A DNA stretch of 32,000 bases from Pyrolobus fumarii 1A (GCF_000223395.1 NC_015931.1:1230001-1262000), one strand, 5' to 3'; numbered from the stretch's first letter, positions 3,741 through 21,476 are shown. Notes: generated by a model not told the origin, from the letters alone. A program made the numbers and translations.

Positions 3741-3828
3741 GCGGGGGTGCCCGAGCCAGGTCAAAGGGGGCGGGCTTAGGACCCGCTGGCGTAGGCCTGC
3801 GTGGGTTCAAATCCCACCCCCCGCACCA
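3741..3828 (+). tRNA. tRNA-Leu (anticodon UAG) with a long variable arm and genomically encoded CCA
   Basis: Manual cloverleaf. The acceptor stem GCGGGGG pairs with CCCCCGC. The anticodon stem GCGGG/CCCGC encloses the loop CTTAGGA, giving anticodon TAG. There is a ~15-nt variable arm. The T arm is GTGGG-TTCAAAT-CCCAC. The discriminator is A, followed by CCA at 3826-3828. No intron is present. Confidence 0.9.
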
Positions 3829-3972: not shown

Positions 3973-4326
3973 TTGCCCTTCGCATCGGGGTTTGTGCTAC
4001 TAACGGCAGAGTACAAGGATGAGCCGAAGAGAAGCGAGGTTAAGAAGCACCTGGAGAGTCTGGGGTTCGAGGTTTATGACATAGGCGACCCTTACCGTAT
4101 AGTCTTCTACGTGGAGGTCGACGACCTGGGCGGGTTAGAGCGGATTATAAAGGCTGCCGAGACCCACGAGGGTATCGCGAAGGCGTACATAGTCTATGGC
4201 TTCCTGGGCGACAGTGAGACTAAGAGGAGAATAAACGAGGCTCTCCTGAGTGGAGAGGCTGAGCTAGACGAGTCTACAAGGGAACTTATAGAGTGGATAC
4301 TCTCGAGGCTGAAAGCTCAGGGCTAA
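3973..4326 (+). CDS. Small cytoplasmic protein with a ferredoxin-like beta-alpha-beta-beta-alpha-beta pattern (NapD-like or stand-alone RAM/ACT-like) plus a helical tail
   Basis: 117 aa with no signal peptide. The segment FVLLTAEY...EVKKHLESLGFEVYDIG..YRIVFYVEVDDLGGLERIIKAAETHEGIAKAYIVYG follows the pattern I remember for NapD (and for RAM domains). The start is TTG 3973, with GTG 3991 as an alternative. A TATA-like 'ttgataataa' sits at 3925-3934. The 3' end overlaps the convergent napH-like gene by 4 nt. Confidence 0.5.
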   Translation: MPFASGFVLLTAEYKDEPKRSEVKKHLESLGFEVYDIGDPYRIVFYVEVDDLGGLERIIKAAETHEGIAKAYIVYGFLGDSETKRRINEALLSGEAELDESTRELIEWILSRLKAQG

Positions 4327-5258
4327 GCCTTTCTTCTCTCGTCTCCTCCTCTTGTTCTACGCCGAGGCAGGCCTATTGTAAGGGCTAGTACCCTCTCTGG
4401 ACATACTTCGACGCACCTACCGCACCTGAAGCACCGGTAATCTCTGATATCCTCACCTCTCTTCGCGATATTCGCGACATCTATTGTCATTGGGCACACT
4501 ACGCTACACAATTGGCAGAATGTGCACCTATTACTGGCTACTGTTTTTACGGTCAACAGGCTATACTTGTTCATCACGTGGCCGAATATGTTGCCCGCGG
4601 GGCATATGAACCTACACCATAGCCTCTTTACGCCGAACACTCTCTCAGCAACAATGTTGATCGCGAGCGCCGCTAGCGTTGTGGTGACCCATGCGATTGC
4701 CAGGCTTATTGTCGCCCCGGGCACGTTATACAGTATACCGACTAGCGTCGCAGCTAGCTTCGTGGTACCTGCGATCGGCGATATTGTCGTGAAGAATGGC
4801 TGAGCGAACACTACGCTAAGCAGTAGGAATGCTATCATCGCCGCAACTGGCACCAGCTTCTCTAAACGCCCGGCCTCATGTGGCCTTGCGAATCTCGGGC
4901 TTCTAGGCGTTGCCAGTTTACGCTCGAATATCGAGAATAGCATGTCCATCGGGCAGACCCACCCGCAGAAGAATCTCCCGAGCACACTATAGAGGGTGAA
5001 CACCACGAGAACAGCAATGATAGACTCTAGCGTCGCTTGGTGCGAGGCTACGAGCTGCTCGAGCCACGCGAATATATCGAGCATTGGTATCGTCTTGAGT
5101 ATCCTCGAGGAGGCTAGGCTACCCTCTATTATTGCCCCGTGGAACAACACCTGCGTGGCAAACAGCAACAGCAATGCTACCTGCATAGAGCGTCGTAGTA
5201 GCGTGTACTTGCCTCTAGGCGGCCTGCCTCTCAGGATAGCAAAGAGTTTCCTAACCAT
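4323..5258 (-). CDS. napH: NapH/MauN-type membrane polyferredoxin (quinol dehydrogenase membrane subunit, COG0348)
   Basis: About four TM helices are present, with the two family-typical CxxCP motifs (FFCGWVCPMDMLF and LWCRFICPAGNIFG). The C-terminus carries two CxxCxxCxxxCP ferredoxin motifs (CTFCQLCSVVCP, CFRCGRCVEVCP). I prefer ATG 5258 as the start: it is preceded by gagggtga and lies 11 nt after the napG stop. The track's 5321 start would overlap napG by 53 nt. Confidence 0.8.
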   Translation of the reverse strand: MVRKLFAILRGRPPRGKYTLLRRSMQVALLLLFATQVLFHGAIIEGSLASSRILKTIPMLDIFAWLEQLVASHQATLESIIAVLVVFTLYSVLGRFFCGWVCPMDMLFSIFERKLATPRSPRFARPHEAGRLEKLVPVAAMIAFLLLSVVFAQPFFTTISPIAGTTKLAATLVGILYNVPGATISLAIAWVTTTLAALAINIVAERVFGVKRLWCRFICPAGNIFGHVMNKYSLLTVKTVASNRCTFCQLCSVVCPMTIDVANIAKRGEDIRDYRCFRCGRCVEVCPERVLALTIGLPRRRTRGGDERRKA

Positions 5259-5268
5259 GCTCTCACCC

Positions 5269-6279
5269 TCAACTCTCCTCATTCTCTGTCTCGAGAGTCT
5301 CAACAACTTTCTCGGAGACAATACCCCTAATGTTTATGATATAGTCGCTATTGACTATCATCGCCCTGAACGTCGCCTTTTCAGGATTCTCGCGCTCAGT
5401 ACGAAGTATCAACTCGAGATACTCTTCATAGCTCATACCAGTATTCTTGAAGTTCTTGGCTCTCCTCTCGTACTCCTCCCTAGGCAGAACGTGAATCGCA
5501 CTACCGTTTACCGGGCAGGCCGACACACACTGCCCGCAACCAGTGCACTTCTCTGGCCTCACCCGCGTGTGGACACCCCACTCGTTAAACGTGAACTCGA
5601 AAACCTCGGTGCCGAAGGGACACGCCTTTGCACAGCTGTAGCACTCGCCGCTGTTCCAAGCCCAGCATAGATCCGGGTCTATCATAGCGACGCCCATCCT
5701 AACCTCCTTGGGCTTAACTTCTCTCAATGCACCAGTGGGGCACACAATAGTACACTTCATGCACAGGGTACACGGGTAATGCATAACATCTGGCACTATG
5801 GGCGTCCCTACACGCTCAAGCCCGCCCTCAACGCCAACGAGCCTTATAGCATAGTATCCCTCGTACAGGCAGGCATAGTAGCACAACCCGCAACGTACAC
5901 ATTTTGCATAAAAGTCTTCATCAGCACCTGGCGGTAAAAGCTCAAACCTATCCTCCTCGTAGGGCTTCACGTATGTCATGCACCGGTCGGGAAGCAAAGG
6001 ATTAGCAACACAGATCTTACCGTCACGCTCTATAAGTAGTCCAAGCGACTTGTAATACTCGTACCTTTCCCTATCACGCTCCGCATCAATCTCAAACTCC
6101 ACATAGTATACATTTTCTCCGCTTCTCTCGTTGCCGGCGCCGCGAGTCCCCTCTCCAGCCGCGAAGGAGGATGCCACGCTTCCAATACTAGCTGCTACTA
6201 CACCAGCCCCTACTGCCTTCAGAAACTCTCGACGTGAAAGGCGTGTAACACCACTTTTATCCATTACTCTTACCCCCAC
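5269..6279 (-). CDS. napG: NapG-like Tat-exported four-cluster [4Fe-4S] ferredoxin
   Basis: The N-terminus has a twin-arginine signal (SRREFLKAVGAGVVAAS). Four Cys clusters follow: CVRCGLCYYAC, CTLCMKCTIVCP, C..x7..CYSCAKACP and CTGCGQCVSACP. The gene sits directly upstream of the napH-like gene. Confidence 0.8.
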   Translation of the reverse strand: MGVRVMDKSGVTRLSRREFLKAVGAGVVAASIGSVASSFAAGEGTRGAGNERSGENVYYVEFEIDAERDRERYEYYKSLGLLIERDGKICVANPLLPDRCMTYVKPYEEDRFELLPPGADEDFYAKCVRCGLCYYACLYEGYYAIRLVGVEGGLERVGTPIVPDVMHYPCTLCMKCTIVCPTGALREVKPKEVRMGVAMIDPDLCWAWNSGECYSCAKACPFGTEVFEFTFNEWGVHTRVRPEKCTGCGQCVSACPVNGSAIHVLPREEYERRAKNFKNTGMSYEEYLELILRTERENPEKATFRAMIVNSDYIINIRGIVSEKVVETLETENEES

Positions 6280-6453: not shown

Positions 6454-9400
6454 TTAGTAGGCTAAGCTGTACTTGGGCTTACCAGTCTGCTCGGCCTCGG
6501 ACTTTGGTATCTCGTCGGGCCTTGCCTTCCTTATCCTCGCTGCACACGTCTTGAAGTCTGGCTGGAAGAAGTACGGCTGCACGTCGTAGTTGTCTAGTGT
6601 TAGCGCGTTGGCTAGCTTGTTCGGATCGAACCATGGCACGAACACGTAGTCGATTCTTGGGCCGCCTAGACCGGTCTTCGGGTCTAGTATGACCGCCTTC
6701 ACGGTCAGCTTACCGCGTGGGCTCTCAATCGTCACCCAGTCGCCCTTCTTGATACCGAGCTTCTCGGCTAGCTCCTTGGGTATCTCGACGTAGGCCTCTG
6801 GCTTCGACTTCATAATCTCTGGCACCTTGCCGGTCATTGTCGCCGTGTGCCAGTGCTCGACAATCCTACCTGTGGTTACCACAAGTGGATACTCCGTCGC
6901 ATCCCTCACAGTGATGACACGCCCGTCCTCAGTCCTGTATCTTAGCGCGAAGCCCGGCACCTCAGCAGGCGCTAACGCAATCTCGAAGAGCGCCTGGATG
7001 TCACCCTTGTACTTCTTTACAGCCTCGCCCCAGCTCATCGTCTCGAGTATCTTTAGCGCCTTCTCTGGGTCGCCGCTGGCTGGGTACGCCTTGTACGTCT
7101 TCACGACAGTGAATGGTCCCTTGGGCGCCGCGAATACCGATATCTTGCCCTGCTTCAATACTAGGTTAGCGTCTAGCTTCATCTCTTGTATTATCACCTC
7201 CTTGTTGATCTTGACCTCGCCAGTCTCATGGTCCATCTTGATTGGTAGCCATGGCCTCGCCCAGATGGTCATCCTACCGGTCGGCTTGGCGTAGAACACC
7301 ACATACCAGCTCTCTGGCACCTTGCTAGCCTTCTTGTACTCGATGTCATCTATCTCCTCTACGATGTGCTTGAGCACCCACTTCATGAGCACTGGGTTCT
7401 TGGCTAGGCTGCCAAGCCACTTGTGCTTGTGTATCGGGTGCACCACGTTCTCGTCGAGGCTCTCTATGTACTTCTGTATCTCCTCGGGGCTGTTCATGTT
7501 CTTAATGTCATTGTATATCTTCTTGATGACGTCTGGGTCGGGCATTAGCGGGTCGTACGGGTAGGAGTACCTGCCGCAGGACTTGTACTTCTCATACCTC
7601 GCTTTGACGCTCGGGTTAGTCGCATACTGCTCTGGCCATGGCCACCTGAAGCCAGCCTCCAGCTTCCTGAATAACTCGCGCTTCACGTAGCTGAAGTCGT
7701 AGTAGGTGTTCTTGGCTAGGCTTAGTATGTCACGGTCCCATATCCTAGTGACGAACTCCTGGTGCCACTTCTTGTCACGGCTCTTCTCCACGATGTACTG
7801 GACCCAGCTCTTGCCTGCAGCCTTGGCCGCCTTGTCGACATCCTCTGGGAAGAAGCCGCTCACAAGACCCTTCGCAATTATACCCTCGTCTTCAAGCGCC
7901 TTACCGACCATCGCGAAGATTATGTGGTCAGCTACGGCCTCGCCCGGCGGTGTTATCAGGTACCTTGCTACGCTGTAGCGCCTCTCGCTACAACCGTACT
8001 TGAACTCCTTCTCGGACCAGGCCGCCGCCGGGAGTATCAGGTCTGCGACATCGGTGGTCCTTGTTGGGTAGATGTCGCTCACTATAACGAATGGGAACGC
8101 GGGATCATCGTCGTGCGGCTTTACCATACCAAGCCTGAACTTGTATACATTTGGTAGGCTGTGACCTGGGTTCGTCTCAGCGATCCACACTACCTTGATG
8201 ATACCCGCGCCAATCCTGCGGAATAGCTCAACAGCGTGTGGACCCGGAACCGGGTGCACATATACCTTCTCGATCTCCTTTTTGATCTGCTCTGGCGAGT
8301 AGCCACGCTCCTTTAGGTATTCCTCGGTGAGCTTCCTCCAGATCTTCTCCACCTGCTCCCTTGCTGCCTTCTTGGCGATCAGCCTACCGTATGGCAGGAC
8401 GTGAGCCAGGCCACCCTGGTCTCTAATGCCGCCACAGGCGTTCGGCTGACCAGTCAAGCTCCAAGTGCCGGAACCATACTTGCCAATCTTGCCTGTGAGC
8501 GCTAGTAGGTTGATTATGCTGTTAACAGCGTGCACACCCTGTATCTTCTGGTTGATGCCCATAGTCCAGAAGACTAGGATCCTGCCCCTCGCTATCCACT
8601 TCGCAGCAAGCCTAAGCGCCTCTACCGGGTCGATCTCAATGAATGGCGTGTCCTCCATCTTCACCTTGTCTGGGCTCAACTCGCCAGCCTTGATCAGCTT
8701 CTCAGCAGTCTCCTTGTTGATGAGTGGCTTCTGGTCGCCGAAGAGTATCTTAGCCATAACCTCCGGCTTGTAGAACTCAAGGAACTTGAGGTATAGCGCG
8801 AATCCTCTCCACCAGTCCTTCTCTATCTCCTCCTCACTCGTGTACTTCTTACCGATGCTCGGGTACACCTTGTAGTTGGCAGCGTTGCTGGCAGTGGTAC
8901 CCATGTCCCAGACCTTATTCAAGTCGCCAAGGTTGTTCAGCGGTGTGTTGTAATCCTTGAGTGCCCAGGTCTTCGCGGTCTCAACGGGTATCGCGAAGTC
9001 CGCGTGCCTCTTGAGCCACTTTAGGTCGATGTACTCGCCCTTGCACTCAACCTTACCCTCCTTGACGTCAATCACCTTACACTTGTCTAGCTCGAACGCC
9101 ACTATGTGGGCGAGCGTGTGGAGAAGCGCAACGTCCATACTCCAACGGATTGGCAGCCATAGGTCGGCAATGGTACCGCTCCTGGTCTTCCTGGGGTCAG
9201 CTAGTATCACCTTGGCATTCGGGTTTTTCTTCTTCACCTCAGAGATGCGGCCGAAGAGTATTGGATGCGCCTCAGCAGTATTGCTACCGATTATCATGAA
9301 TGTATCTGCATGCACGCCCAGATCGGGCTCCGGCACGTCTATGTAGTCGTAGCTTACCTCAGGCTCATCAGCACCAAAGCTGGATATGTAACCGCCAACG

Positions 9401-10206
9401 GCGCTAACCATACAGAGCCTTGGGTTACCGTCGAGGTTGTTGGTGTGTATACCGCCCTTAGTCAGCTTGTTGATAACGTAGCTCTCCTCGGTGCCAAGCT
9501 GACCACTTCCATAGTAGGCGAAGCTGTGTGGACCATACTTGTTCAGAGCATACTTTAGCACCGCGGTTAGGAACTTGATCGCGGTGTCCCAGTCGATCTC
9601 GACGAAGTTCTCCTTGACGTGCTCCTCTACGGTCTTGGTTGCATCTAGGTTCTTGCTTACCTGGCGCTTCTTGACCCTAGGCGCCTCGGGTATCTCCTCG
9701 GGGGTTATTGGTGGCCTGTTCTTACCTGGGATTATCCAGTCCTTGTTGACTAGAGGTTTCTTGAAGCGTAGCTCCATAGCCCTCTTGTTACCGCCGTAGC
9801 CTAGAGCCTTGTGGATGTAGAAGGCCTTGACGCAGAGGGCACCCCTGTTAACCGGGTAGTTCGGGTCGCCGATAACCGCGAGAATGTCCTTAGCCATGCC
9901 AGTAGCCGGGTCCATTACTACCTGGAGCTTCACGCCACAACCAGTACCGCAGTACCTGCAGGGACCGAGCAGAAGGGTGGATATCTTCGGCCTGGCGGTT
10001 GTCGTCGCGGTCTCTGTTGGAGTTGCACCCACGGTTGTCGTGATAGTCTTAGTCTGGGTTAGAACCTCTGTAAGTGTGGTCGTTACAGTCTCGACGATTT
10101 TCTCCTTGCGACCGGTCATATAGTAGGTCGCGGCTCCGCCCACAGCTGCTAGCGCGGCACCAAGGGCAATTGCTTTTAGAATATCACGACGCGTTTGGTC
10201 GGGCAA
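6454..10206 (-). CDS. napA: NapA-like (periplasmic-nitrate-reductase-type) Mo/W-bis-pyranopterin oxidoreductase catalytic subunit; Tat signal/anchor, Thr-rich linker, unusually long at 1250 aa
   Basis: A twin-arginine motif is present (TRRDILKAIALGAALAAV). The [4Fe-4S] motif CRYCGTGCG (9934-9960) is followed by ...CVKAF. The motif GNPRLCMVSAVGGYISSFGADEP contains a Cys (codon 9412-9414) at the NapA Mo-ligand position. Other NapA-like segments are IIGSNTAEAHPILFGRI, SLTGQPNACGG, EHWHTATMTGKVPE and FVPWFDPNKLANALTLD. All resemble NapA signatures as I remember them. The start is TTG 10206, preceded by aggaggggt. Confidence 0.85.
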   Translation of the reverse strand: MPDQTRRDILKAIALGAALAAVGGAATYYMTGRKEKIVETVTTTLTEVLTQTKTITTTVGATPTETATTTARPKISTLLLGPCRYCGTGCGVKLQVVMDPATGMAKDILAVIGDPNYPVNRGALCVKAFYIHKALGYGGNKRAMELRFKKPLVNKDWIIPGKNRPPITPEEIPEAPRVKKRQVSKNLDATKTVEEHVKENFVEIDWDTAIKFLTAVLKYALNKYGPHSFAYYGSGQLGTEESYVINKLTKGGIHTNNLDGNPRLCMVSAVGGYISSFGADEPEVSYDYIDVPEPDLGVHADTFMIIGSNTAEAHPILFGRISEVKKKNPNAKVILADPRKTRSGTIADLWLPIRWSMDVALLHTLAHIVAFELDKCKVIDVKEGKVECKGEYIDLKWLKRHADFAIPVETAKTWALKDYNTPLNNLGDLNKVWDMGTTASNAANYKVYPSIGKKYTSEEEIEKDWWRGFALYLKFLEFYKPEVMAKILFGDQKPLINKETAEKLIKAGELSPDKVKMEDTPFIEIDPVEALRLAAKWIARGRILVFWTMGINQKIQGVHAVNSIINLLALTGKIGKYGSGTWSLTGQPNACGGIRDQGGLAHVLPYGRLIAKKAAREQVEKIWRKLTEEYLKERGYSPEQIKKEIEKVYVHPVPGPHAVELFRRIGAGIIKVVWIAETNPGHSLPNVYKFRLGMVKPHDDDPAFPFVIVSDIYPTRTTDVADLILPAAAWSEKEFKYGCSERRYSVARYLITPPGEAVADHIIFAMVGKALEDEGIIAKGLVSGFFPEDVDKAAKAAGKSWVQYIVEKSRDKKWHQEFVTRIWDRDILSLAKNTYYDFSYVKRELFRKLEAGFRWPWPEQYATNPSVKARYEKYKSCGRYSYPYDPLMPDPDVIKKIYNDIKNMNSPEEIQKYIESLDENVVHPIHKHKWLGSLAKNPVLMKWVLKHIVEEIDDIEYKKASKVPESWYVVFYAKPTGRMTIWARPWLPIKMDHETGEVKINKEVIIQEMKLDANLVLKQGKISVFAAPKGPFTVVKTYKAYPASGDPEKALKILETMSWGEAVKKYKGDIQALFEIALAPAEVPGFALRYRTEDGRVITVRDATEYPLVVTTGRIVEHWHTATMTGKVPEIMKSKPEAYVEIPKELAEKLGIKKGDWVTIESPRGKLTVKAVILDPKTGLGGPRIDYVFVPWFDPNKLANALTLDNYDVQPYFFQPDFKTCAARIRKARPDEIPKSEAEQTGKPKYSLAY

Positions 10207-10265
10207 AGCTTACCCCTCCTGCTGCGCAACTATTCCTAATTCCACATGACACATAACGATGCTTC

Positions 10266-10275
10266 TATAAAAATA
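10266..10275. promoter_or_regulatory. TATA-like element in the divergent napA-like / 10361 intergenic region
   Basis: 'tataaaaata' is the only strongly AT-rich box in the 154-nt divergent spacer. It lies ~60 nt from the napA-like TTG and ~90 nt from ATG 10361. I cannot tell which strand it serves. Confidence 0.35.
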
Positions 10276-10360: not shown

Positions 10361-11320
10361 ATGAGCGATTTCGCCCGGATTGGAAGCGTGGCTTTGGTTA
10401 GGGGTGTCGGTATTGACGATATACTCGAGCCAGGCTATAAAATAGTACTCGCCGACGACGAGTACGTTGATATTTACGAAGAGTACTTGTTTAGAGGCTT
10501 TGATGTGATGAACGCAGACGTGAACGAAAATAAGGCTGATCTCGTAGGCATTTATAGCATTGCAAGCTTCGTTGGCGACGATCCTGCCGTCATAGTATGC
10601 GGGTCTAATAGTGTGCTCTGTGCCGGGATTGCGGCATCAATCCTCGTGTATAAGGGGTGGAGTGCACAAGAGGCTATCGAAAAAGCCGAGCATGCAACTG
10701 CAAGCCTCTATGGCGTTGGGCGTATCACACGCCAGCTCAGGGCAGCTATAGAGGCGCTGGGCGGGCTACTAAAAGCCGCGAAGAACCGGGATATCGTATC
10801 AGTGTTGCTAGGAGCAGGAGAAATGTATGGTTACGGTAAGGGGAGATTGCACTATGGCGAGTTCCTATCATGGCTTTACATCGTAGAGCAAGAGTGGACC
10901 GTGCTATTGGCGGGTGCCCTTCACTTCCTAACAGAGGGTGCCGACGAGCCACGCAAGTTGCTAGATATGAGGCTACAGGCGATAGGCAAGGAGCTAGCAT
11001 ACGCTATTGACGAGACACAATTGACGGAAGCCATAGACATTCTACGAGACTATGCTATGGAGGATGTTAAACGCCGTGAAGCGAGAATACTACGACTCGT
11101 AGAGAGCCTAGAGCCTGGCATGCCCTACGTATCATTCATAGATACAATGTCTGATAAGCTAGTGGTTGTATGCCGCTGCGGCGAGTACAACGAACCTCTT
11201 AAGGAGTGCGTAAACGCTGCCAACAAAGCATCAAAGTATCTTGACGCGACCAGGTTCAACGAGCTAAGAATAGCGCTAGATTGTACAGGAAAAGTTAAAA
11301 GCAGAATCGAACATGTCTAA
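10361..11320 (+). CDS. Hypothetical cytoplasmic protein (319 aa) transcribed divergently from the NapA-like gene
   Basis: This is a long ORF with codon usage like its neighbours. It has no signal peptide or TM segment. The segment VIVCGSNSVLCAGIAASILVYKGWSAQEAIEKAE faintly recalls a dual-specificity phosphatase P-loop region but lacks the Cx5R arginine. The C-terminal two thirds look helical, with a CRCG...C...C cluster near the end. I recognise no family. Confidence 0.6.
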   Translation: MSDFARIGSVALVRGVGIDDILEPGYKIVLADDEYVDIYEEYLFRGFDVMNADVNENKADLVGIYSIASFVGDDPAVIVCGSNSVLCAGIAASILVYKGWSAQEAIEKAEHATASLYGVGRITRQLRAAIEALGGLLKAAKNRDIVSVLLGAGEMYGYGKGRLHYGEFLSWLYIVEQEWTVLLAGALHFLTEGADEPRKLLDMRLQAIGKELAYAIDETQLTEAIDILRDYAMEDVKRREARILRLVESLEPGMPYVSFIDTMSDKLVVVCRCGEYNEPLKECVNAANKASKYLDATRFNELRIALDCTGKVKSRIEHV

Positions 11321-11486: not shown

Positions 11487-12170
11487 TTACTTACGAGATA
11501 CTGCTAGATACCCGCCAGCACCTATCACGAACAATAGAGCAGCGATAGCAATTGCCAGTGTTACATCATGCTTTACTACCTCGCCCTTGGTGACTACCGT
11601 CGTTGTCGGCTTGGTCGTTGTCACTAGAGTGGTTGTCACGATTGTCGTGGTGGTTACCTTTGGTTCGACAGTGATCTCCTTGAAGCCGTAATAGTCGCCA
11701 ACGACGCTAGCGCTACCATCAGCCGCTAGAACAGCTATCTTGAAGGTCACTGGCACTGGTTTTTCAGGGGCTTTCCACTCGAATGTCCACTCGCGCTTAG
11801 TGGCACCCTGCGCGGTGTGAGTCAACATCCTGCCATCTGGCGTCTCGGAAACTTGAGTCGTATCATCGACAGGCTTTAGTTCGCCAGCATTCACCAGGAC
11901 TGCAAAGCCGCCACAATAGGCGCCTTCGGGGCACTTGGGCCCTTTCGTTATCTTTATCGTTATCTTGTAGACTTTACCGGGTTCGTATTTGCTGGGCAAA
12001 CCGGTGACAGTAAACTCGGCAGTTCCCGCTGGCTGGTGACACTGGTTACATTCTAGTCTTGGGGCGCCGCTGCTCATCGCGCCAACATGCACTGCAACTA
12101 GGCCGACAACTACTAGTACAGCCACCAGGGCAGTCAATAATGCGTACTTCTTCAACATCAATATGCTCAC
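11487..12170 (-). CDS. Monohaem c-type cytochrome with a beta-rich (DOMON/reeler-like?) domain, a Thr-rich stalk and a C-terminal TM anchor
   Basis: An N-terminal signal/TM segment is followed by a single CNQCH haem-c motif (12036-12050). A ~120-aa beta-strand-patterned domain follows (FTVTGLP..YKITIKIT..GGFAVLV..WTFEWKAP..FKIAVLAADG). Next is the linker KVTTTTIVTTTLVTTTKPTTTVVT (11586-11657). The protein ends with the TM LAIAIAALLFVIGAGGYLAV and the tail SRK. Confidence 0.75.
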   Translation of the reverse strand: MSILMLKKYALLTALVAVLVVVGLVAVHVGAMSSGAPRLECNQCHQPAGTAEFTVTGLPSKYEPGKVYKITIKITKGPKCPEGAYCGGFAVLVNAGELKPVDDTTQVSETPDGRMLTHTAQGATKREWTFEWKAPEKPVPVTFKIAVLAADGSASVVGDYYGFKEITVEPKVTTTTIVTTTLVTTTKPTTTVVTKGEVVKHDVTLAIAIAALLFVIGAGGYLAVSRK

Positions 12171-12468
12171 TCCTCCAATGCGAGGCTCAGTGGCATAGAT
12201 CAGACAAAATTAGTATTATGCCTCAAATCTTCGGATATTTTTTACTTTTTCCTTTGGTTTTGATAGTCATCATAATATCTGCATGATTAACGACAATTAA
12301 GCATACCATCACCTTTCTAGCCAATTGTGGTGAAGCGAGCCACTACGATAGATTTGCAATATTCTTTAGCTATACATTATTGTTGTTAACATCCGAGTCC
12401 GAAAAATTATGGTTGAAGATATAACTGGATGCGTCACGCCGCCCGCCTTATGGAATAGTGGGGTGACC

Positions 12469-14988
12469 ATGAGTATGAGCCGTGTTGTAACTCTTGTTTT
12501 CGTTGTATCGATCCTAGCACTTCTAGCGGTCAGCGCTACGGCAGCCGCAGCAACCGTACCCTTCGGTGACGAGGTAGTCAAGAAGGTAGATGAACTGCTT
12601 AAGAGCGACATTGTCAGCCCACAGACCAAGGCGTGTATCCAGTGCCACCTGTCAGTCACCCCGATGATCGTCTACGAGTGGGCTATGAGCAAACACGCTC
12701 AGATGACACCAGCTCAGGTTGCCGAGCTGTACAAGAAGCTTGGCGAGCCTCAGTGGGCTAACATGATTGCCGAGAAGTTCAAGAACTACAAGTACGTCGT
12801 CGGCTGCTACGAGTGTCACGGCATGTTCGCCGACACCGACAGACCCGATGCCGTCGAGCACATACCTGGCGTCAAGATCGTCGCAGTTGTGACTAGGAAG
12901 GACTGTGGTCAGTGCCACCCGAAGGAAAACATTGAGATCAGCTGGACCTGGCACGCCACTGCTGCATTCGCACCTATCAAGCCATGGTACACTGCCATAA
13001 TCAAGTACGCTGTGAGCGAGGGCGCGAACCCGTTTGGCGATGAGAATGCAAAGGCGCTCTACGAGAAGTACCTGCCACCATTCCTAACCAAGCAGCGCGA
13101 CAAGGAGCCAGTCTACTGGAACTTCTACAAGGAGATTGCAAAGGCCGTAATGGAGTACATGATGACCGGCAAGGAGAACGACATAGTGAAGATGCTCAAG
13201 GAGGCCACCGGCATGGTAACGCCGTACGACCTTGACTGGAAGAAGTGGATTAGCCCACTATGGCCAGCTAGCGGCGTCCTCAACAACACTATCCTCGGCA
13301 AGCTAGGCATTAAGATAACCATTGCCGCGATGGACGGCACTGTCGCAACTGTGAGCAACGTGATGTCCCACCCAACCTTCCGCAACGCCTATGTCTATCA
13401 CGCATGTCTAGAGTGCCACGGCGCTGCCGTGATACCCTATGGTTATGCTGAGGACCCAACCTACAAGGTGAAGATAGTCAAGCTATGGGGCTGGCCGAAC
13501 AACGGTGCTGGCCGTATCGACCCGGACGGTAGCATTGGCACCTGCACTGCATGCCACCCACGCCACATGTTCAGCGTGAAGCAGGCTAGGGAGCCATGGA
13601 CCTGTGGCCAGTGCCACCTAGGCTACGACCACCCACACATCGAGATTTACGAGGAGAGCAAGCATGGTAACATCTACGACGCTTATGGCGAGGAGTGGAA
13701 CTGGGAGCAGATACCGTGGAGGCCGGGCATTGACTTCAACGCGCCAACCTGCGCAACCTGCCACATGAGTGCGCTAGCCGACAAGGATGGCAACATTATC
13801 GTGCCAGGCACTCACGACCTAGTGAAGAGGCTAGTATGGGACCAGATGCACTTCTTCAGTCACCCGAAGCCAGTGATACCAGACAACTTCCAGACTGCCA
13901 CCTTCCTCAAGTTCAGCATGCTGAAGGGCAAGTACCCAGAGGATGTAATGAAGGCATATGAGCAGACCGGCAGGTATCCGGTCTTCATGGGTCTAAAGAT
14001 CGTTGACGAGTGTCAGCCGGGCCAGGTGTGCTTCCCAAGGCTACCGAAGGTCGAGCTTACCGGCGAGCTAGCCAAGCACCGTGAGGAGATGAAGAAGGTC
14101 TGTAGGTTCTGCCATGCAAGCCAGTGGGTCGACAACTACTTCAGAACCGCCGACCAGAACATAATCGAGTACGACATTGTCGCCAGGTTCGCGTTTAGCC
14201 TACTACAGCTAGCATGGGCCGAGGGCATCCACGACAAGAAGAACCTGCTAGACGAGTACATGGAGATCATGTGGTACTACATCTGGCACCACGACGGTAG
14301 GAGGTGGAGGAACGGCGCCACCATGATGGGTCCAGACTATGCACACTGGCTTGGCATCGTTGACACTGTGATGGACAAGCTCGGCAGGATGATAAACTAC
14401 CTAGCAACCGCACTCAAGGTCAAGAAGCTCGAGACCGAGCTAGCTGCCCTCAAGCAGCAGGCTGCTGGCGCGCCATACGCGCCAGAGCTGGTCGAGAAGA
14501 TTGCAAAGCTAGAGAGGATGATAGAGGAGCTGAAGAGCAAGCTAGCAGCCCTAGAGGCGCAGGTGCCGACCCTAAAGGCTAAGCTAACCGAGCTATCCAG
14601 CGACGTGTCTGCACTTGAGAGCGACTACACGAGCTTCAAAGGCGATGTGAGCGAGATCGTGAAGAGAGTTGAGGAGCTTAGCAAGCAGCTAGAGACCATT
14701 GCACCCGAGGCTAAGAAGATAACCGAGCTTGTCAGTCAGGTCAAGGACATTGTCGCCAAGCTAGAGACTCTCAACAAGAAGGTTGAGGAGGTGAGCGGCA
14801 AGGTCGAGAAGATGGGCGAGGAGGTGGGCACCGTCAAGTCCAAGGTTGAGAAGGTCAGCGAGGAGGTAAGCAGCGTCACCGAGCAGCTAGGTGCCGTGAG
14901 CGCCAACAGCTACACGCTAGCCGGCATCGCACTAGCAGTAGCTGCTATCGCACTAGGCCTAGCGGTTATACGAGGCAGAGGAGCCTAA
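12469..14988 (+). CDS. Octahaem c-type cytochrome of the hydroxylamine oxidoreductase (HAO) family, fused to a long coiled-coil stalk and a C-terminal TM anchor (paralog 1)
   Basis: Eight CxxCH motifs are present: CIQCH, CYECH, CGQCH, CLECH, CTACH, CGQCH, CATCH, CRFCH. There is an HAO-family block, WGWPNNGAGRIDPDGSIGTCTACHPRHMFSVKQAREPWTCGQCHLGYDHPHIEIYEESKHGN. The signal peptide is MSMSRVVTLVFVVSILALLAVSATAAAA. I prefer ATG 12469 as the start because ggggtga precedes it; the track start is 12409. A coiled coil spans ~14410-14904 and a TM helix spans 14911-14970. Confidence 0.85.
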   Translation: MSMSRVVTLVFVVSILALLAVSATAAAATVPFGDEVVKKVDELLKSDIVSPQTKACIQCHLSVTPMIVYEWAMSKHAQMTPAQVAELYKKLGEPQWANMIAEKFKNYKYVVGCYECHGMFADTDRPDAVEHIPGVKIVAVVTRKDCGQCHPKENIEISWTWHATAAFAPIKPWYTAIIKYAVSEGANPFGDENAKALYEKYLPPFLTKQRDKEPVYWNFYKEIAKAVMEYMMTGKENDIVKMLKEATGMVTPYDLDWKKWISPLWPASGVLNNTILGKLGIKITIAAMDGTVATVSNVMSHPTFRNAYVYHACLECHGAAVIPYGYAEDPTYKVKIVKLWGWPNNGAGRIDPDGSIGTCTACHPRHMFSVKQAREPWTCGQCHLGYDHPHIEIYEESKHGNIYDAYGEEWNWEQIPWRPGIDFNAPTCATCHMSALADKDGNIIVPGTHDLVKRLVWDQMHFFSHPKPVIPDNFQTATFLKFSMLKGKYPEDVMKAYEQTGRYPVFMGLKIVDECQPGQVCFPRLPKVELTGELAKHREEMKKVCRFCHASQWVDNYFRTADQNIIEYDIVARFAFSLLQLAWAEGIHDKKNLLDEYMEIMWYYIWHHDGRRWRNGATMMGPDYAHWLGIVDTVMDKLGRMINYLATALKVKKLETELAALKQQAAGAPYAPELVEKIAKLERMIEELKSKLAALEAQVPTLKAKLTELSSDVSALESDYTSFKGDVSEIVKRVEELSKQLETIAPEAKKITELVSQVKDIVAKLETLNKKVEEVSGKVEKMGEEVGTVKSKVEKVSEEVSSVTEQLGAVSANSYTLAGIALAVAAIALGLAVIRGRGA
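14779..14904 (+). repeat. Six consecutive 21-nt (heptad) imperfect repeats inside the stalk-coding region
   Basis: The repeats translate as KVEEVSG/KVEKMGE/EVGTVKS/KVEKVSE/EVSSVTE/QLGAVSA. Hydrophobic residues (V/L) sit at fixed heptad positions. The DNA shows the matching 21-nt periodicity (aaggttgaggaggtgagcggc / aaggtcgagaagatgggcgag ...). Confidence 0.6.
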
Positions 14989-15063: not shown

Positions 15064-16629
15064 ATGCGTATCCTCTATTCTCATCTTTTTACCATCCTTC
15101 TCATACTGGTATTCACGCAGTATGCTTTTGCGTCTCTGATATCGAACTATCCGGGTCAACCCATAGCGTATGAACTCGTGATCAACTTTACACACGCCTC
15201 AGAATCACAAGAGTGGCGCGTTCACATTGAACTTGTAGGATACAACGCAAATTTCACGTGTTCATCGTCTCTGAAGCCTAACCCGCTCTACATGCAGACT
15301 AGGAGTATCTCCCCTCGACTAATCGCCACGTCGTTATACTATGTGCTTGACAGCGTGTGCCCAAAAGTGATAGATGTTTTGAAGAGCGCGAAAAACGGCT
15401 TACTGGAGCTTGTGATGACAGCACCCAAAGACTATGTTGTAAGGAGCGCGCTAGACTGGCGGGGTTACGGGGCACCCGGCGGGCCATACCTACTACCGGT
15501 CACCCTTTTCAAGAGGTACTACATGTATGACGGCATTGTGGTCGCCTATACTAGGGTCTACGAGACGATCGACAATCCGTCGTTGAACCTGAGTATAGTT
15601 CTGCCGAGAGGGTTTAACACTGCACAGCTTGATGCTGTTGTCGAGACTGTAACCGCAGTTAGAAACGGGCTGAGCAGGTGGCTTGGCCCCAGTCCTAGGA
15701 GCCCCGTTGTAATCGTGATCGCTTCGCCAGAGGAGAGTGACTACATGCCTCCCGGTACCGCGCATAGTACAGGAGCCATGCTCTACATAAAACCTGACAT
15801 TGATGTCGACCTGGCTGGTCTAATCCATGCTGTTGCGCATGAATCTGCTCATGGTTGGTTCAACTTTGGGCTATTGTACGGCGACTTTGGGTTCCAAGAG
15901 GGTCTTGCAGAGTTCCTTGCGTTGAACGCGCTCCGTGTATATGCGCCAAGGTTGTTCGGGATAGCAGAACGCTATGTGTTATTCTCGTTGAAGAGCGACG
16001 ATAGGTACGCGACGTGGCTCAAGGTTCATGCTGCCATATGGTACTCTGTGATATACGCGTGCAACGAGAGTTTATACACAGATCTCTTACGTGGTTTGTT
16101 CCGCCAGGCTCTCGCGGAGAACGGCAAGTACGTTACATTGTTCGATTTGATTAACTCCCTTGTGGCACACGCACCACAATATTGTAGACAGAGGCTCAGG
16201 TCTCTGTTAGGCCCTACTCTACTATCCGCTGCCGAGGGTAGTAGCAGCTGGCCGTTCGTGAACACTACTGTGATAGAGGATGCCCTTAGGCTGCTCAACA
16301 GTCCAGTTTCTTCAAACTTCACCGTTAACGGGACGTGTAGAGGACAGCCGCTAGAGGAGCCACCAGCGAGGATTAGCCATACACGCACAGGTGTCAATGA
16401 AATGCCACGCGAAAAAGTTACCCTCAACAGCACCTCAACCGAGAAGAGCGTTACACACGCCCCACAATCGCCTACTCGCACACAGAACGTTGAGAGGGGC
16501 GGACCAGCTGGCAGTTTCTCATTAGAGCCTAGCAGTTCTCTTTACGGGCAAATACCATATCTCGCGCTACTAGCTTTTATAGCGGTGTTTAGCATTTTTG
16601 CGTTTCGTGCGAGAATAAACCGTGAATGA
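15064..16629 (+). CDS. Membrane-anchored extracellular gluzincin (M1-like, peptidase clan MA) zinc metalloprotease, N-glycosylation-sequon rich
   Basis: An N-terminal signal/TM segment is present. The motif HAVAHESAHGWFNFGLLYGDFGFQEGLAEF contains HExxH (15838-15852) followed by a downstream QEGLA. This resembles the M1 HExxHx18E / NEGFA arrangement, but the spacing is 3 residues shorter. There are many NxS/T sequons. The C-terminal TM is IPYLALLAFIAVFSIFAF, with the tail RARINRE. Confidence 0.65.
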   Translation: MRILYSHLFTILLILVFTQYAFASLISNYPGQPIAYELVINFTHASESQEWRVHIELVGYNANFTCSSSLKPNPLYMQTRSISPRLIATSLYYVLDSVCPKVIDVLKSAKNGLLELVMTAPKDYVVRSALDWRGYGAPGGPYLLPVTLFKRYYMYDGIVVAYTRVYETIDNPSLNLSIVLPRGFNTAQLDAVVETVTAVRNGLSRWLGPSPRSPVVIVIASPEESDYMPPGTAHSTGAMLYIKPDIDVDLAGLIHAVAHESAHGWFNFGLLYGDFGFQEGLAEFLALNALRVYAPRLFGIAERYVLFSLKSDDRYATWLKVHAAIWYSVIYACNESLYTDLLRGLFRQALAENGKYVTLFDLINSLVAHAPQYCRQRLRSLLGPTLLSAAEGSSSWPFVNTTVIEDALRLLNSPVSSNFTVNGTCRGQPLEEPPARISHTRTGVNEMPREKVTLNSTSTEKSVTHAPQSPTRTQNVERGGPAGSFSLEPSSSLYGQIPYLALLAFIAVFSIFAFRARINRE

Positions 16630-19802: not shown

Positions 19803-21476
19803 GTGTTGAAGGGTATGGAAGCAAGGCAAATTCTCGTGTTTGCTATTGTCGCGGTAATCGTTGCCGCCGCAGCATACTTCGCTGGCTATAGCGCTGCCCC
19901 GACAAAGACAGTGACATCCACGGTGGAGTCGGTAGCTACTTTGACAGTGACGAAAACGCAAATGCTTACAGAGACTTACTCGGAGATCCGCACGGTGACA
20001 GTGACTACAACACATACGGTTGTAAAGCGAGTCGGCTTCATGCCAAAACAGATAAACGTCCAGGAGGAGGTCAAGAAGATTATGAATAAGCTATCGCCGC
20101 AGAGCAGGGCGTGCGTAAACTGCCACATGAGATACACTCCCGGCATAGTCGCCGACTGGCTGATGAGCAAGCACGCGCGTGTAACGCCAGCCGAGGCCTG
20201 GAAGAAGCCGGAGCTTCAGCGTGAGATATCCGCCCTACCACCGGAGAACATGAGGGATTACATCGTCGGCTGTTACGAGTGCCACGGCCTAAACCCGGAC
20301 AAGCACCCAGATACCTTCGAGCACTTTGGCTTTAAGATCCACACTATAGTGACGCCGCCGGATTGCGCCGTCTGTCACCCCGTGGAGGTCGAGGAGTACG
20401 GCAGGAGCGTGAAGGCACACGCTCACAACAACCTGGTGAAGAACCCGGTGTACATGCTGCTCGTCAACGCCTCAACACAGATAAACATGTTTGGCATCAA
20501 GGCGGGCTACCATCTGGCTGTTGAGAGCGCCTGCTTCGCCTGCCACGGTGCGAAGGTAGAGTTCGTCGGCCTGAAGGAGATCCAGGTGGGCAATCTCAAG
20601 CTAAAGGTGCCAGTCTACAAGGGCTGGCCGAACCACGGTGTGGGCAGAGTAAACCCGGATGGCAGCGAGGGCTCTTGTACAGCATGCCACCCGAGACACG
20701 CCTTTAGCATCGAGGTTGCACGCAGCCCATACACCTGCTCCCAGTGCCACCTAGACCCAGACGTCCCAGCCTTCGACGTCTGGAAGGAGAGCAAGCACGG
20801 CAACATATTCCTAGCACAGTGGAAGACTTACAACATGACTGCTGTGCCATGGGTGCCTGGCAGAGACTTCCGCGCGCCATCCTGCGCGGTCTGCCACTTC
20901 TCGCTACTAGTCGATAAGAATGGCAACGTGATAGCTCCCAGGACGCACGACGTAGGCTCAAGGATATGGATTAGGCTCTTCGGCGTCTATGCGCACCCGC
21001 AGCCGAAGATTGGCGAGACGTGGAAGATTAAGAACAAGGATGGTCTGCCGCTCCCATACTCGCTGCTGGACGCCGAGCCAGCCTGGGACTATGTGATCAG
21101 CAAGGAGGAGATGGCGAAGAGACGCGAGCAGATGATAAAGATTTGTAGTGCGTGCCACTCGGAGAACTACGCTAGAGAGAGGATAGCGTGGTTCGAGGGC
21201 GTTGTCAACGAGACTAACAAGGCGATACTGGCGTCCACCCAGCTACTCGTAGAGGCATGGAAGAAGGGTGTCGCCAAGGGCCTGCTGACCGGCGACAACC
21301 CGTTCGACGAGTACATCGAGAGACTGTGGATAGAGACTTGGCTATTCTACGCTAACAGCATCAGATATGGCGCCGCGATGAACGGCCCAGACTGGACGAC
21401 GTTCAAGAGAGGCTGGTACCAGCTAACCAGGACGCTCGGCGAGATGCAGATGCTAATAGAGCTGCACGGAAAGTAA
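19803..21476 (+). CDS. Octahaem c-type cytochrome of the HAO family with an N-terminal TM anchor and Thr-rich linker (paralog 2)
   Basis: Eight CxxCH motifs are present: CVNCH, CYECH, CAVCH, CFACH, CTACH, CSQCH, CAVCH, CSACH. The HAO block is YKGWPNHGVGRVNPDGSEGSCTACHPRHAFSIEVARSPYTCSQCHLDPDVPAFDVWKESKHGN. The anchor is ILVFAIVAVIVAAAAYFAGY and the Thr/Val linker spans 19899-20018. The start is GTG 19803 or ATG 19815. Confidence 0.85.
   Translation: MLKGMEARQILVFAIVAVIVAAAAYFAGYSAAPTKTVTSTVESVATLTVTKTQMLTETYSEIRTVTVTTTHTVVKRVGFMPKQINVQEEVKKIMNKLSPQSRACVNCHMRYTPGIVADWLMSKHARVTPAEAWKKPELQREISALPPENMRDYIVGCYECHGLNPDKHPDTFEHFGFKIHTIVTPPDCAVCHPVEVEEYGRSVKAHAHNNLVKNPVYMLLVNASTQINMFGIKAGYHLAVESACFACHGAKVEFVGLKEIQVGNLKLKVPVYKGWPNHGVGRVNPDGSEGSCTACHPRHAFSIEVARSPYTCSQCHLDPDVPAFDVWKESKHGNIFLAQWKTYNMTAVPWVPGRDFRAPSCAVCHFSLLVDKNGNVIAPRTHDVGSRIWIRLFGVYAHPQPKIGETWKIKNKDGLPLPYSLLDAEPAWDYVISKEEMAKRREQMIKICSACHSENYARERIAWFEGVVNETNKAILASTQLLVEAWKKGVAKGLLTGDNPFDEYIERLWIETWLFYANSIRYGAAMNGPDWTTFKRGWYQLTRTLGEMQMLIELHGK

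Follow-up and report, generated by a model that had tools for sequence, protein, structure and literature searches.

The oversized NapA-like protein of Pyrolobus fumarii 1A as a member of the archaeal branch of a long-NapA lineage with a candidate monohaem cytochrome partner

Among the described systems closest to the gene studied here is the nitrate reductase of Desulfurivibrio. According to Thorup et al. 2017 (PMC5516251), D. alkaliphilus reduces nitrate and expresses its napAGHD operon only in nitrate-dependent growth, when expression is high. The same paper reports no napB, gives the electron donor of NapA as 'unknown' and, on phylogenetic grounds, sees in the protein 'a novel type of NapA', with a similar one in Ca. 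Kryptonia. NapA of D. dismutans is strongly upregulated on nitrate in a second study (PMC12142623), and the nap locus of this species (L055 in our set) is of the long type described below. In the available portions of these two papers and of a study of Pyrodictium delaneyi (PMC8105010), we found no description of NapA size, insertions or a monohaem partner, and two phylogenies of the dimethyl sulfoxide reductase family (PMC7331816, PMC10100899) mention neither the long-NapA clade nor its genera. Here we analysed a stretch of 32,000 nucleotides from the hyperthermophilic crenarchaeon Pyrolobus fumarii 1A (GCF_000223395.1, NC_015931.1:1230001-1262000; hereafter the window, with positions counted from its first letter), which carries an oversized napA gene at 6454..10206 on the minus strand. 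By sequence comparison, we assign its product to the archaeal branch of a long-NapA lineage that was noticed earlier but is uncharacterised. New here is that long napA is strictly associated with a gene for a monohaem beta-sandwich cytochrome and not with NapB.

The open reading frame (ORF) has 1250 codons including a TTG start, and in the homologue search its 1250-residue product matched the entry 'Nitrate reductase [Pyrolobus fumarii 1A]' at 100% identity. Direct reading of the sequence places a Shine-Dalgarno-like box, AGGAGGGG, at 10213..10220 (minus strand), 8 nucleotides before the TTG at 10206-10204, in line with the aggaggggt-like box of the initial annotation. The TTG start is supported because colinear homologues begin at the matching MPDETRRD position. 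A TTTTTATA box at 10266-10273 (minus strand), about 60 nucleotides upstream of the TTG and found by eye only, is a possible TATA box with a putative promoter role. The protein had been called oversized against a bacterial NapA length of 800-830 residues. The excess is real, about 440 residues beyond the NapAs of about 780 residues, but the baseline was too narrow: solved NapAs have 723-924 residues and bacterial long NapAs 1101-1136. The mature 1178 residues divide into 737 core and 441 extra residues by comparison with the shorter enzymes.

The unusual length is the sole point in favour of an assembly or annotation artefact or of a fusion of NapA with another gene. An artefact is ruled out by colinear full-length homologues, which fall into more than 100 clusters and are encoded in the complete genomes of Hyperthermus, Pyrolobus and two species of Ignicoccus. 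A fusion is ruled out as well. The extra residues are interspersed at four sites instead of being appended, the protein is predicted as one compact body (predicted template modelling score, pTM, 0.93), and residues 860-1100 have no homologue as a separate protein anywhere in the search. Because the whole NapA fold sits embedded within this larger body, we regard either origin of the long frame as practically negligible.

The protein carries NapA-like signatures from end to end, as had been proposed. Pfam places the three domains of an enzyme with a molybdenum-bis(pyranopterin guanine dinucleotide) cofactor at residues 82-130 (Molybdop_Fe4S4), 198-768 (Molybdopterin) and 1108-1222 (Molydop_binding). 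All features of the protein are encoded on the minus strand. The [4Fe-4S] domain (residues 73-131; 9814..9990; PF04879, E 5e-10) contains C83, C86, C90 and C125 and the relay lysine K127, which do not vary among the 75 long and short NapAs aligned. Cys265 (9412..9414), again an invariant column, is the predicted molybdenum or tungsten ligand. The residues C265-M266, M549, Q587 and R595 align to C140-M141, M308, Q346 and R354 of the D. desulfuricans enzyme 2NAP, which we take to have the metal-ligand and pocket roles, and these columns are likewise invariant in the 75 sequences. The C-terminal molybdopterin-dinucleotide-binding domain (residues 1103-1228; 6523..6900; PF01568 and alignment) is followed by a tail of 22 residues. 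Besides the FeS cysteines, the LCMVSAVGG motif, SLTGQPNACGGIRD and EHWHTATMTG are present.

The closest sequence relative in the PDB is D. desulfuricans NapA (2JIO, E 3e-127), followed by NapAB-type enzymes (about 1e-86) and, far weaker, formate dehydrogenases. The alignment to 2JIO falls into five blocks (residues 79-131, 193-378, 527-757, 828-872 and 1103-1228). We built an AlphaFold2 model of residues 73-1250 on the homologue alignment, as the initial annotation had suggested for the protein alone. It forms a single compact body with a mean predicted local distance difference test score (pLDDT) of 91.9, a pTM of 0.93 and no segment below 50, and the insertions are folded. In Foldseek, the top match is D. 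desulfuricans NapA (2NAP/2V45), with a template modelling (TM) score of 0.91-0.92 when normalised to the target, or 0.57 when the query is the reference. NapAB-type NapAs reach target-normalised scores of 0.83-0.84 and formate dehydrogenases 0.6-0.8, and the NapAs rank above all formate dehydrogenases, Aio and other enzymes. The pair of 0.92 and 0.57 therefore indicates a complete NapA fold embedded in a body about 1.6 times the size of NapA. In the model, the protein has the complete four-domain NapA fold.

Two related enzyme classes were rejected. An assimilatory nitrate reductase (NasA/NasC/NarB) is ruled out by the signal for twin-arginine translocation (Tat), the respiratory context of napGH and cytochromes, and the weaker Nas profiles (237 and 205 bits vs 397 for NapA). 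A formate dehydrogenase (FdhH/FdnG/FdhA) is ruled out by the ligand region, which is Cys-Met and not SeCys/Cys-His, and by Fdh profiles and structures that score well below those of NapA.

The homologues fall into three tiers. The archaeal tier (1223-1292 residues, 66-78% identity) includes Hyperthermus butylicus, Ignicoccus islandicus, Pyrodictium delaneyi and many metagenome-assembled genomes. The bacterial long tier (1101-1136 residues, 37-42% identity over 92-98% of the length) comes from Nitrospirota/Thermodesulfovibrionales, Dissulfurispiraceae, Ca. Kryptonium and Desulfurivibrio, and Caldimicrobium also holds a bacterial long NapA. Ordinary NapAs of 770-810 residues from various hosts form the last tier, with about 40% identity over about 28% of the length. 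In a neighbour-joining tree of 761 well-occupied columns, built without bootstrap and with an outgroup limited to 12 short NapAs, the archaeal (23) and bacterial long (40) groups are reciprocally monophyletic, and together they form one clade (63/63) against the short NapAs. A subgroup of 1135 residues (P0032/P0033; loci L007 and L036) is the closest relative outside the Pyrodictiaceae, and one of its contigs is labelled 'archaeon'.

Alignment to NapA crystal-structure sequences, a check that had been proposed earlier, maps the extra residues to four regions. Insertion A (residues 132-192; 9631..9813) is basic, follows directly on the FeS domain and is modelled with block-mean pLDDT of 88-98. 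Insertion B (residues 379-526; 8629..9072) forms a beta-rich subdomain and a helical hairpin in the third domain. Insertion C (residues about 610-645; 8272..8379) is a Lys/Glu-rich helical hairpin with 39% Lys plus Glu. The insertion D region (residues 758-1102; 6901..7935) is modelled as a helical bundle with a small sheet and additional helices, and combines about 115 core-equivalent with about 230 extra residues. The four regions were delimited by alignment, and the model describes their folds. The initial annotation had described the insertions as Lys/Glu-rich, and their Lys plus Glu content is indeed 22% against 12% in the core. This composition is as expected for surface elements.

The 441 extra residues comprise 321 that are common only to the bacterial long NapAs, at 31% identity, and 120 that are found only in archaea. 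The roughly 400 extra residues noted at first are thus true insertions, but they are not peculiar to this gene, since three quarters are common to a clade that includes mesophilic bacteria. The subfamily is known (PMC5516251), but it is not characterised. Of the refuting case named in the initial annotation, insertions standard in a known, characterised subfamily, only half therefore applies. Thermoadaptation is ruled out as the source of the extra length, because mesophilic Desulfurivibrio, and also Nitrospirota, have three quarters of it in common with Pyrolobus. On the sequence comparison, the insertions are inherited within a distinct lineage of long NapAs common to archaea and bacteria.

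Insertion D was also considered as a domain borrowed from elsewhere. When residues 860-1100 were searched against 1.84 billion cluster representatives, the sole matches were the archaeal representative (E 3e-99) and a single bacterial long NapA (E 5e-4), and the absence of any sequence relative outside the long-NapA clade rules this origin out. A separate model of residues 861-1086 (pLDDT 84.7) again shows a helical bundle, a small sheet and three more helices. No PDB fold matched this excised model better than E 1.2 and TM 0.26, a weak negative, because the excised fragment may be mis-modelled.

No NapB partner was said to be encoded near the gene, and the wider survey bears this out. The window contains no dihaem ORF and no similarity to NapB, and a hidden NapB was looked for without success. 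To extend the comparison, we scanned GTDB species genomes with an alignment of the insertions only and obtained 57 long-napA loci, none of which has a NapB-like gene. The CxxCH ORFs among the analysed genes of the window encode one monohaem and two octahaem cytochromes. A fourth CxxCH ORF is a fragment of 97 codons with one motif, antisense within the start of the octahaem gene at 19803..21476.

The monohaem c-type cytochrome (227 residues; 11487..12170, minus strand; CNQCH) lies 1.3 kilobases upstream of napA with one gene between. It matches NCBIfam NF041895 (E 3e-28) and Pfam Reeler (E 2.5e-5). Its layout is an N-terminal hydrophobic segment, one CxxCH motif, a Reeler-like or 'choice-of-anchor V' beta-sandwich, a C-terminal Thr-rich stretch and a transmembrane anchor. 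Its identity is 32-37% to the products of small ORFs that stand directly upstream of long napA in four loci, those of Desulfurivibrio, Kryptonium, Dissulfurispiraceae and one more, and the CxxCH, GGF, THT and W..W.AP motifs are invariant in the homologues compared. These homologues lie at L001 7371-7916, L005 5447-5983, L006 5473-5967 and L007 5431-5994, with others in L020-L066; the L007 protein carries a C-terminal transmembrane anchor. Where a bacterial-type locus was informative, that is, with at least 800 nucleotides upstream of napA, the cytochrome gene is immediately upstream on the same strand without exception (42/42). It is found within 10 kilobases in 6 of the 8 informative archaeal loci and is missing in both Ignicoccus loci. 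A literature search on 'choice-of-anchor V' returned no paper on the cytochrome family.

Two control loci of short NapAs (P0113 and P0116) have the order napD, napA, a 100-residue dihaem NapB-like gene (L008 7352-7663; L009 7364-7666), napG and napH, and lack the monohaem cytochrome. Their NapB-like proteins have a Cys-containing N-terminal hydrophobic segment and are possibly lipoproteins. The nearest ordinary NapAs of about 780 residues (P0109-P0120) carry a Tat motif, a lipobox (AGC) and a Pro/Thr-rich linker, and are probably Tat lipoproteins. Taken with the gene order, the sequence comparison makes the monohaem cytochrome a candidate electron-transfer partner that would replace NapB. We see even chances that it is the direct redox partner of long NapA.

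The initial annotation had suggested that the insertions may create docking surfaces for the neighbouring cytochromes or for NapG, and the comparison of loci points to one of these, the monohaem cytochrome. We regard a docking site for it on the insertions as possible, though less likely than not; more generally, their most likely role is as partner-binding and shielding surfaces of a NapB-independent complex, and this is the least secure step of our proposal. They might otherwise be neutral or stabilising surface decorations at permissive NapA loops that have no partner-binding role. The insertion sites are length-variable hot spots of the NapA fold: the 924-residue NapA 9PXT has a smaller insertion at the site of insertion B, and solved NapAs of 792-924 residues insert at some sites in common. 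The coincidence with hot spots used in 9PXT and NapAB-type NapAs is what decoration predicts, as are the typical surface-like Lys/Glu composition and a survey that puts NapA/NasA length differences outside the catalytic regions (PMC7331816). The insertions are also the least conserved parts of the protein, with 26-35% identity to bacterial long forms vs 43-56% in the core. However, 321 residues have been kept in both archaea and bacteria, and the insertions of their long NapAs contain invariant Arg, Trp, Asp, Tyr and Pro positions. The gain of the insertions coincides exactly with the loss of NapB and the gain of the monohaem cytochrome gene. Insertion A, beside the FeS domain, is consistently basic, with a net charge of +4 to +9 in all long NapAs. 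This last point does not extend to a consistent electrostatic match of insertion A to the cytochrome, because the cytochrome domain ranges in net charge from -9 to +2 between species, and in this respect docking is weakened. Mere decoration seems to us unlikely, though it deserves consideration.

The N-terminus carries a twin-arginine motif, T-R-R-D-I-L-K (residues 5-11; 10174..10194). The two arginines are kept in all bacterial long homologues examined and in 27 of 30 archaeal ones; the other three lack an intact N-terminus, being truncated there or partial. An uncharged Ala/Gly-rich segment of 21 residues follows, AIALGAALAAVGGAATYYMTG (residues 12-32; 10111..10173), which is the Tat h-region and a candidate uncleaved anchor. 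Next is a polar linker (residues 33-72; 9991..10110) with 42% Thr and a Thr-rich core, ETVTTT...ATTT (residues 39-70; 9997-10092), where a window of 30 residues reaches 53% Thr. The Thr-rich linker had been recognised earlier, but its limits of 9997-10089 were three bases short at one end.

Among 22 Pyrodictiaceae-type sequences, the uncharged stretch after the arginines has 20-23 residues, save for one case of 17 residues and two of low complexity. All 22 have a Thr-rich linker, and in the 20 that could be parsed the linker has 44-57 residues and is polar and often Thr-rich. In Ignicoccus-type sequences, the h-region has 12 residues and the linker is not rich in Thr. Among the bacterial long NapAs examined, h-regions span 11-16 residues, with AxA-like sites and without a Thr-rich linker; the exception is the P0032/P0033 group, in which an h-region of 19 residues is followed by RKEE, as in Pyrolobus. 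We also compared hydrophobicity as a simple sum on the Hessa scale over 19 residues. The sum is +2.6 (range 1.25 to 3.45) for Pyrodictiaceae-type NapAs, +4.1 for the Tat signal of NapG, about +7.8 for Ignicoccus-type NapAs, about +8.5 for bacterial long NapAs and -1 to -2.5 for the true anchors of the neighbouring cytochromes.

On balance, we find it plausible that the Tat signal of Pyrolobus NapA stays uncleaved as a membrane anchor. Retention is favoured because Thr-rich spacers adjoin the membrane anchors of two neighbouring proteins, the monohaem cytochrome (C-terminal) and the octahaem cytochrome at 19803-21476 (N-terminal transmembrane segment). In archaeal surface-layer (S-layer) proteins, Thr clusters next to anchors are O-glycosylated spacers (PMC5744192), and by analogy the Thr-rich linker of NapA is probably an O-glycosylated spacer as well. 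Two observations weigh on the other side. The Pyrolobus segment has an intermediate Hessa sum of +2.9, close to that of the NapG signal with its SFA-A site and far from those of the true anchors, and VGG/A, GGA/A and GAA/T sites in the h-region satisfy the -3/-1 rule of signal peptidase. The earlier claim of no obvious A-x-A cleavage site is thus weaker than it was put, since VGG/A and GAA/T fit the rule. Cleavage consequently has a serious chance, a little short of even. In that case, the mature NapA would be a soluble pseudo-periplasmic protein held via NapG/NapH or the tethered cytochrome, and the Thr stretch would be a flexible glycosylated tail. The length of the uncharged stretch in most of the 22 Pyrodictiaceae-type sequences, compared with that of bacterial long NapAs, speaks against cleavage. 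So does the Thr-rich spacer, which makes sense only beside an anchor, as in the neighbouring cytochromes and S-layer proteins, and which is missing in Ignicoccus, a host with an outer membrane instead of an S-layer (PMC5744192).

We consider it likely that the long NapA is the catalytic subunit of the extracytoplasmic (Nap-type) respiratory nitrate reductase of Pyrolobus, with the electron chain and tether proposed here. That the enzyme reduces nitrate is very probable, and it is predicted to carry a molybdenum- or tungsten-bis-pyranopterin cofactor and one [4Fe-4S] cluster. The cofactor-loaded NapA would be exported in the folded state by Tat. In Pyrodictiaceae, whose membrane is covered by an S-layer alone, the uncleaved Ala/Gly-rich h-region would hold it on the outside of the cytoplasmic membrane, and the Thr-rich, probably O-glycosylated spacer of about 40 residues would complete the tether. 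Quinol would be oxidised by NapH, and electrons would pass via NapG, and probably through the membrane-tethered monohaem cytochrome, to the FeS cluster of NapA and then to the metal, where nitrate would be reduced to nitrite. The octahaem cytochromes, which resemble hydroxylamine oxidoreductase (HAO), would then take nitrite to ammonium. This last step fits the nitrate-to-ammonium respiration that Blöchl and co-workers reportedly described for P. fumarii in 1997.

Several observations count against this assignment. Close homologues of long NapA occur in Hyperthermus butylicus and Ignicoccus, and to our knowledge these organisms have been described as sulfur reducers or fermenters and not as nitrate reducers. 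Long napA of I. islandicus has no adjacent napGH, and both Ignicoccus loci are without the cytochrome. The long NapAs of I. islandicus (L003) and I. pacificus (L017) are 67-68% identical to the Pyrolobus protein and lack the Thr-rich tether. The Pyrolobus protein also scores far below the curated NapA equivalog cut-offs (397 vs 904 bits for NF010055 and 381 vs 930 for TIGR01706). The insertions split the match into three stretches, and NapA is still the top-scoring family. In P. delaneyi, the abundance of the Nap-like protein was unchanged between nitrate and iron growth (PMC8105010).

These points would also agree with an enzyme of NapA fold that acts on another substrate, such as chlorate, selenate, arsenate, polysulfide or another oxyanion or S/Se compound, with insertions that remodel the substrate funnel. 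Homologues of 68-78% identity in presumed non-nitrate-reducers (H. butylicus, I. islandicus and I. pacificus), the sub-threshold scores and the lack of nitrate regulation in P. delaneyi all fit such an enzyme, and a second molybdoenzyme is likewise nitrate-induced in D. dismutans (PMC12142623). However, the NapA-specific pocket of Cys-Met, Met, Gln and Arg is invariant in the long and short clades, and induction is nitrate-specific in two Desulfurivibrio species (PMC5516251, PMC12142623). Both P. fumarii and P. delaneyi respire nitrate, and the protein is the sole nitrate reductase candidate reported for P. delaneyi (PMC8105010). The gene also stands among HAO-like octahaem cytochromes suited to nitrite ammonification. 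Another substrate thus appears improbable, and nitrate is retained as the substrate of the long NapA.

Joined together, these parts suggest a wider picture, which we regard as possible but doubtful as a whole. Long NapA, the monohaem cytochrome and NapGH would form a distinct extracytoplasmic nitrate reductase architecture in hyperthermophilic Crenarchaeota and several bacterial phyla, in which about 320-440 insertion residues, for which no sequence relatives were detected beyond the clade, dock a new donor in place of NapB and NapC. The uncleaved Tat signal and glycosylated Thr-rich stalks would bind the complex to the membrane in Pyrodictiaceae, and it would work up to about 113 °C, possibly with tungsten.

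The remaining genes of the cluster agree with a nap system. The initial annotation had named a NapG-like neighbour, and both NapG- and NapH-like genes lie downstream of napA. The NapG-like protein is a Tat-exported poly-ferredoxin of 336 residues (5269..6279, minus strand; NCBIfam NapG E 2.7e-26; Pfam Fer4 families), syntenic in relatives. The NapH-like membrane quinol dehydrogenase FeS subunit has 332 residues and four transmembrane segments (4323..5321, minus strand; NCBIfam NapH E 4e-43; synteny). NapG and NapH are their best family matches, at scores below the equivalog cut-offs. The NapG-like protein is enlarged, with 336 residues here and 342 in Hyperthermus vs 250-258 in bacterial long-nap loci, and its extra length lies in an acidic segment that follows the Tat signal and in an extension at the C-terminus. 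The order cytM-napA-napG-napH-napD is conserved, and napG, napH and napD follow napA in nearly all bacterial-type loci. In Pyrolobus, a weakly NapD-like protein of 117 residues is encoded at 3973..4326 (plus strand), convergent with napH, and has a sub-threshold match to Pfam NapD (E 0.025). The ORF that comes next to napH downstream in Hyperthermus is 61% identical to it, and similar ORFs occur in L011, L012 and L017. Judged by sequence and position, it is probably a divergent archaeal NapD and a candidate Tat-signal chaperone. A tRNA-Leu gene (3741-3828, plus strand) lies about 150 nucleotides upstream of it, near the edge of the cluster.

Divergent from napA is a conserved ORF of 319 residues (10361..11320, plus strand) that is found in archaeal loci only and has no Pfam, NCBIfam or PDB match. 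Its homologues hold the matching divergent position in Ignicoccus and Hyperthermus (L003 6908-7831 and L004 6876-7841, both on the minus strand), and others occur elsewhere in the locus in L010-L012 and L016, and in L017. It may be an archaeal assembly or regulatory factor. Further along the window are the two octahaem cytochromes, both similar to HAO and hydrazine dehydrogenase. The first (859 residues; 12409-14988, plus strand) has an N-terminal transmembrane segment, a long C-terminal coiled coil with weak SlaB-like matches, and a C-terminal transmembrane segment. The second (557 residues; 19803-21476, plus strand) has an N-terminal transmembrane anchor and a Thr-rich spacer like that of NapA. 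The two are likely the nitrite-to-ammonium reductases of an island for dissimilatory nitrate reduction to ammonium. Between them lie a gene for a 521-residue protein of no known family with N- and C-terminal transmembrane segments (15064-16629, plus strand) and one for an HTH_10-domain protein, a possible transcription regulator (16694-17572, plus strand).

The long NapA of Pyrolobus is not unique to this genome and is not a new kind of system. We found no earlier description of how far the insertions extend or of their novelty at the fold level, of the additions confined to archaea and the tether, or of the strict association with the cytochrome. NapA structures span 723-924 residues, and the long lineage adds half as much protein again with the active site untouched. 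In this lineage, the canonical donor NapB appears to be replaced by an unrelated monohaem beta-sandwich cytochrome. The upstream cytochrome gene is a concrete candidate for the electron donor given as 'unknown' in the 2017 Desulfurivibrio paper (PMC5516251). The Pyrolobus locus would provide the first step of the hottest known nitrate ammonification, by a chain of NapH/NapG, the tethered monohaem cytochrome, tethered NapA and the octahaem cytochromes, and it suggests how a cell without an outer membrane could retain Tat-exported redox enzymes. Because curated NapA models score long NapAs far below threshold, cut-off-based surveys may under-count nitrate reducers in Nitrospirota, Thermodesulfobacteriota, Kryptonia and Pyrodictiaceae. 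The hypothesis is directly testable and is relevant to specialists in molybdoenzymes and the nitrogen cycle.

Among known systems, the closest structural counterpart is NapA of D. desulfuricans ATCC 27774 (2NAP, 2JIO, 2V45), whose whole fold of 723 residues is embedded in the Pyrolobus protein (target-normalised TM 0.92). The two have in common the FeS motif, the Cys-Met ligand region, the Met/Gln/Arg pocket, Tat export and the lack of NapB. Pyrolobus NapA differs in its additional 440 or so residues in four blocks, a probable membrane tether and an accompanying cytochrome gene, and identity is only about 27% over the structural alignment. The heterodimeric NapAB enzymes (E. coli 2NYA, R. sphaeroides 1OGY, C. 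necator 3ML1) and the 924-residue 9PXT have the family and active site in common with it, and carry insertions at some shared hot spots, namely behind the FeS domain and within the third domain. However, the NapAB class depends on the dihaem NapB that is absent from the Pyrolobus window and the 57 loci, and NapAB-type NapAs are shorter (792-924 residues; target-normalised TM 0.83-0.84 to the Pyrolobus model).

The 'novel type' NapA of Desulfurivibrio and Ca. Kryptonia shares with Pyrolobus the clade, the 321 insertion residues, napG and napH (and napD), the upstream monohaem cytochrome and the absence of NapB. It is 38-42% identical to the Pyrolobus protein over 92-98% of the length, and it is nitrate-induced in Desulfurivibrio (PMC5516251, PMC12142623). 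In contrast to the Pyrolobus protein, bacterial NapAs of this type have 1101-1136 residues, mostly a short, cleavable-looking Tat signal (P0032/P0033 being the exception), no Thr-rich tether and none of the roughly 120 archaeal-only residues. Pyrde_1154 of P. delaneyi, from a sister genus, is the likely orthologue. Kashyap & Holden 2021 (PMC8105010) name it a membrane nitrate reductase resembling Nap, from annotation and proteomics only, having detected it by proteomics in the nitrate-respiring organism. A partial protein from a P. delaneyi genome (P0031), whose accession was not matched to Pyrde_1154, is 78% identical to our query, and Pyrde_1151 is the homologue of the monohaem cytochrome in that species.

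For the tether, two comparisons can be made. Rieske iron-sulfur proteins are inserted by Tat with an N-terminal signal anchor. The likeness to such Tat signal-anchor proteins lies in a folded redox enzyme, Tat export and N-terminal membrane attachment, which for Pyrolobus are inferred from the sequence. The Tat lipoprotein NapAs P0109-P0120 have an analogous tether through their lipobox and Pro/Thr-rich linker. Pyrolobus NapA differs from them in having no lipobox Cys and in a spacer that is Thr-rich in the style of archaeal glycoproteins.

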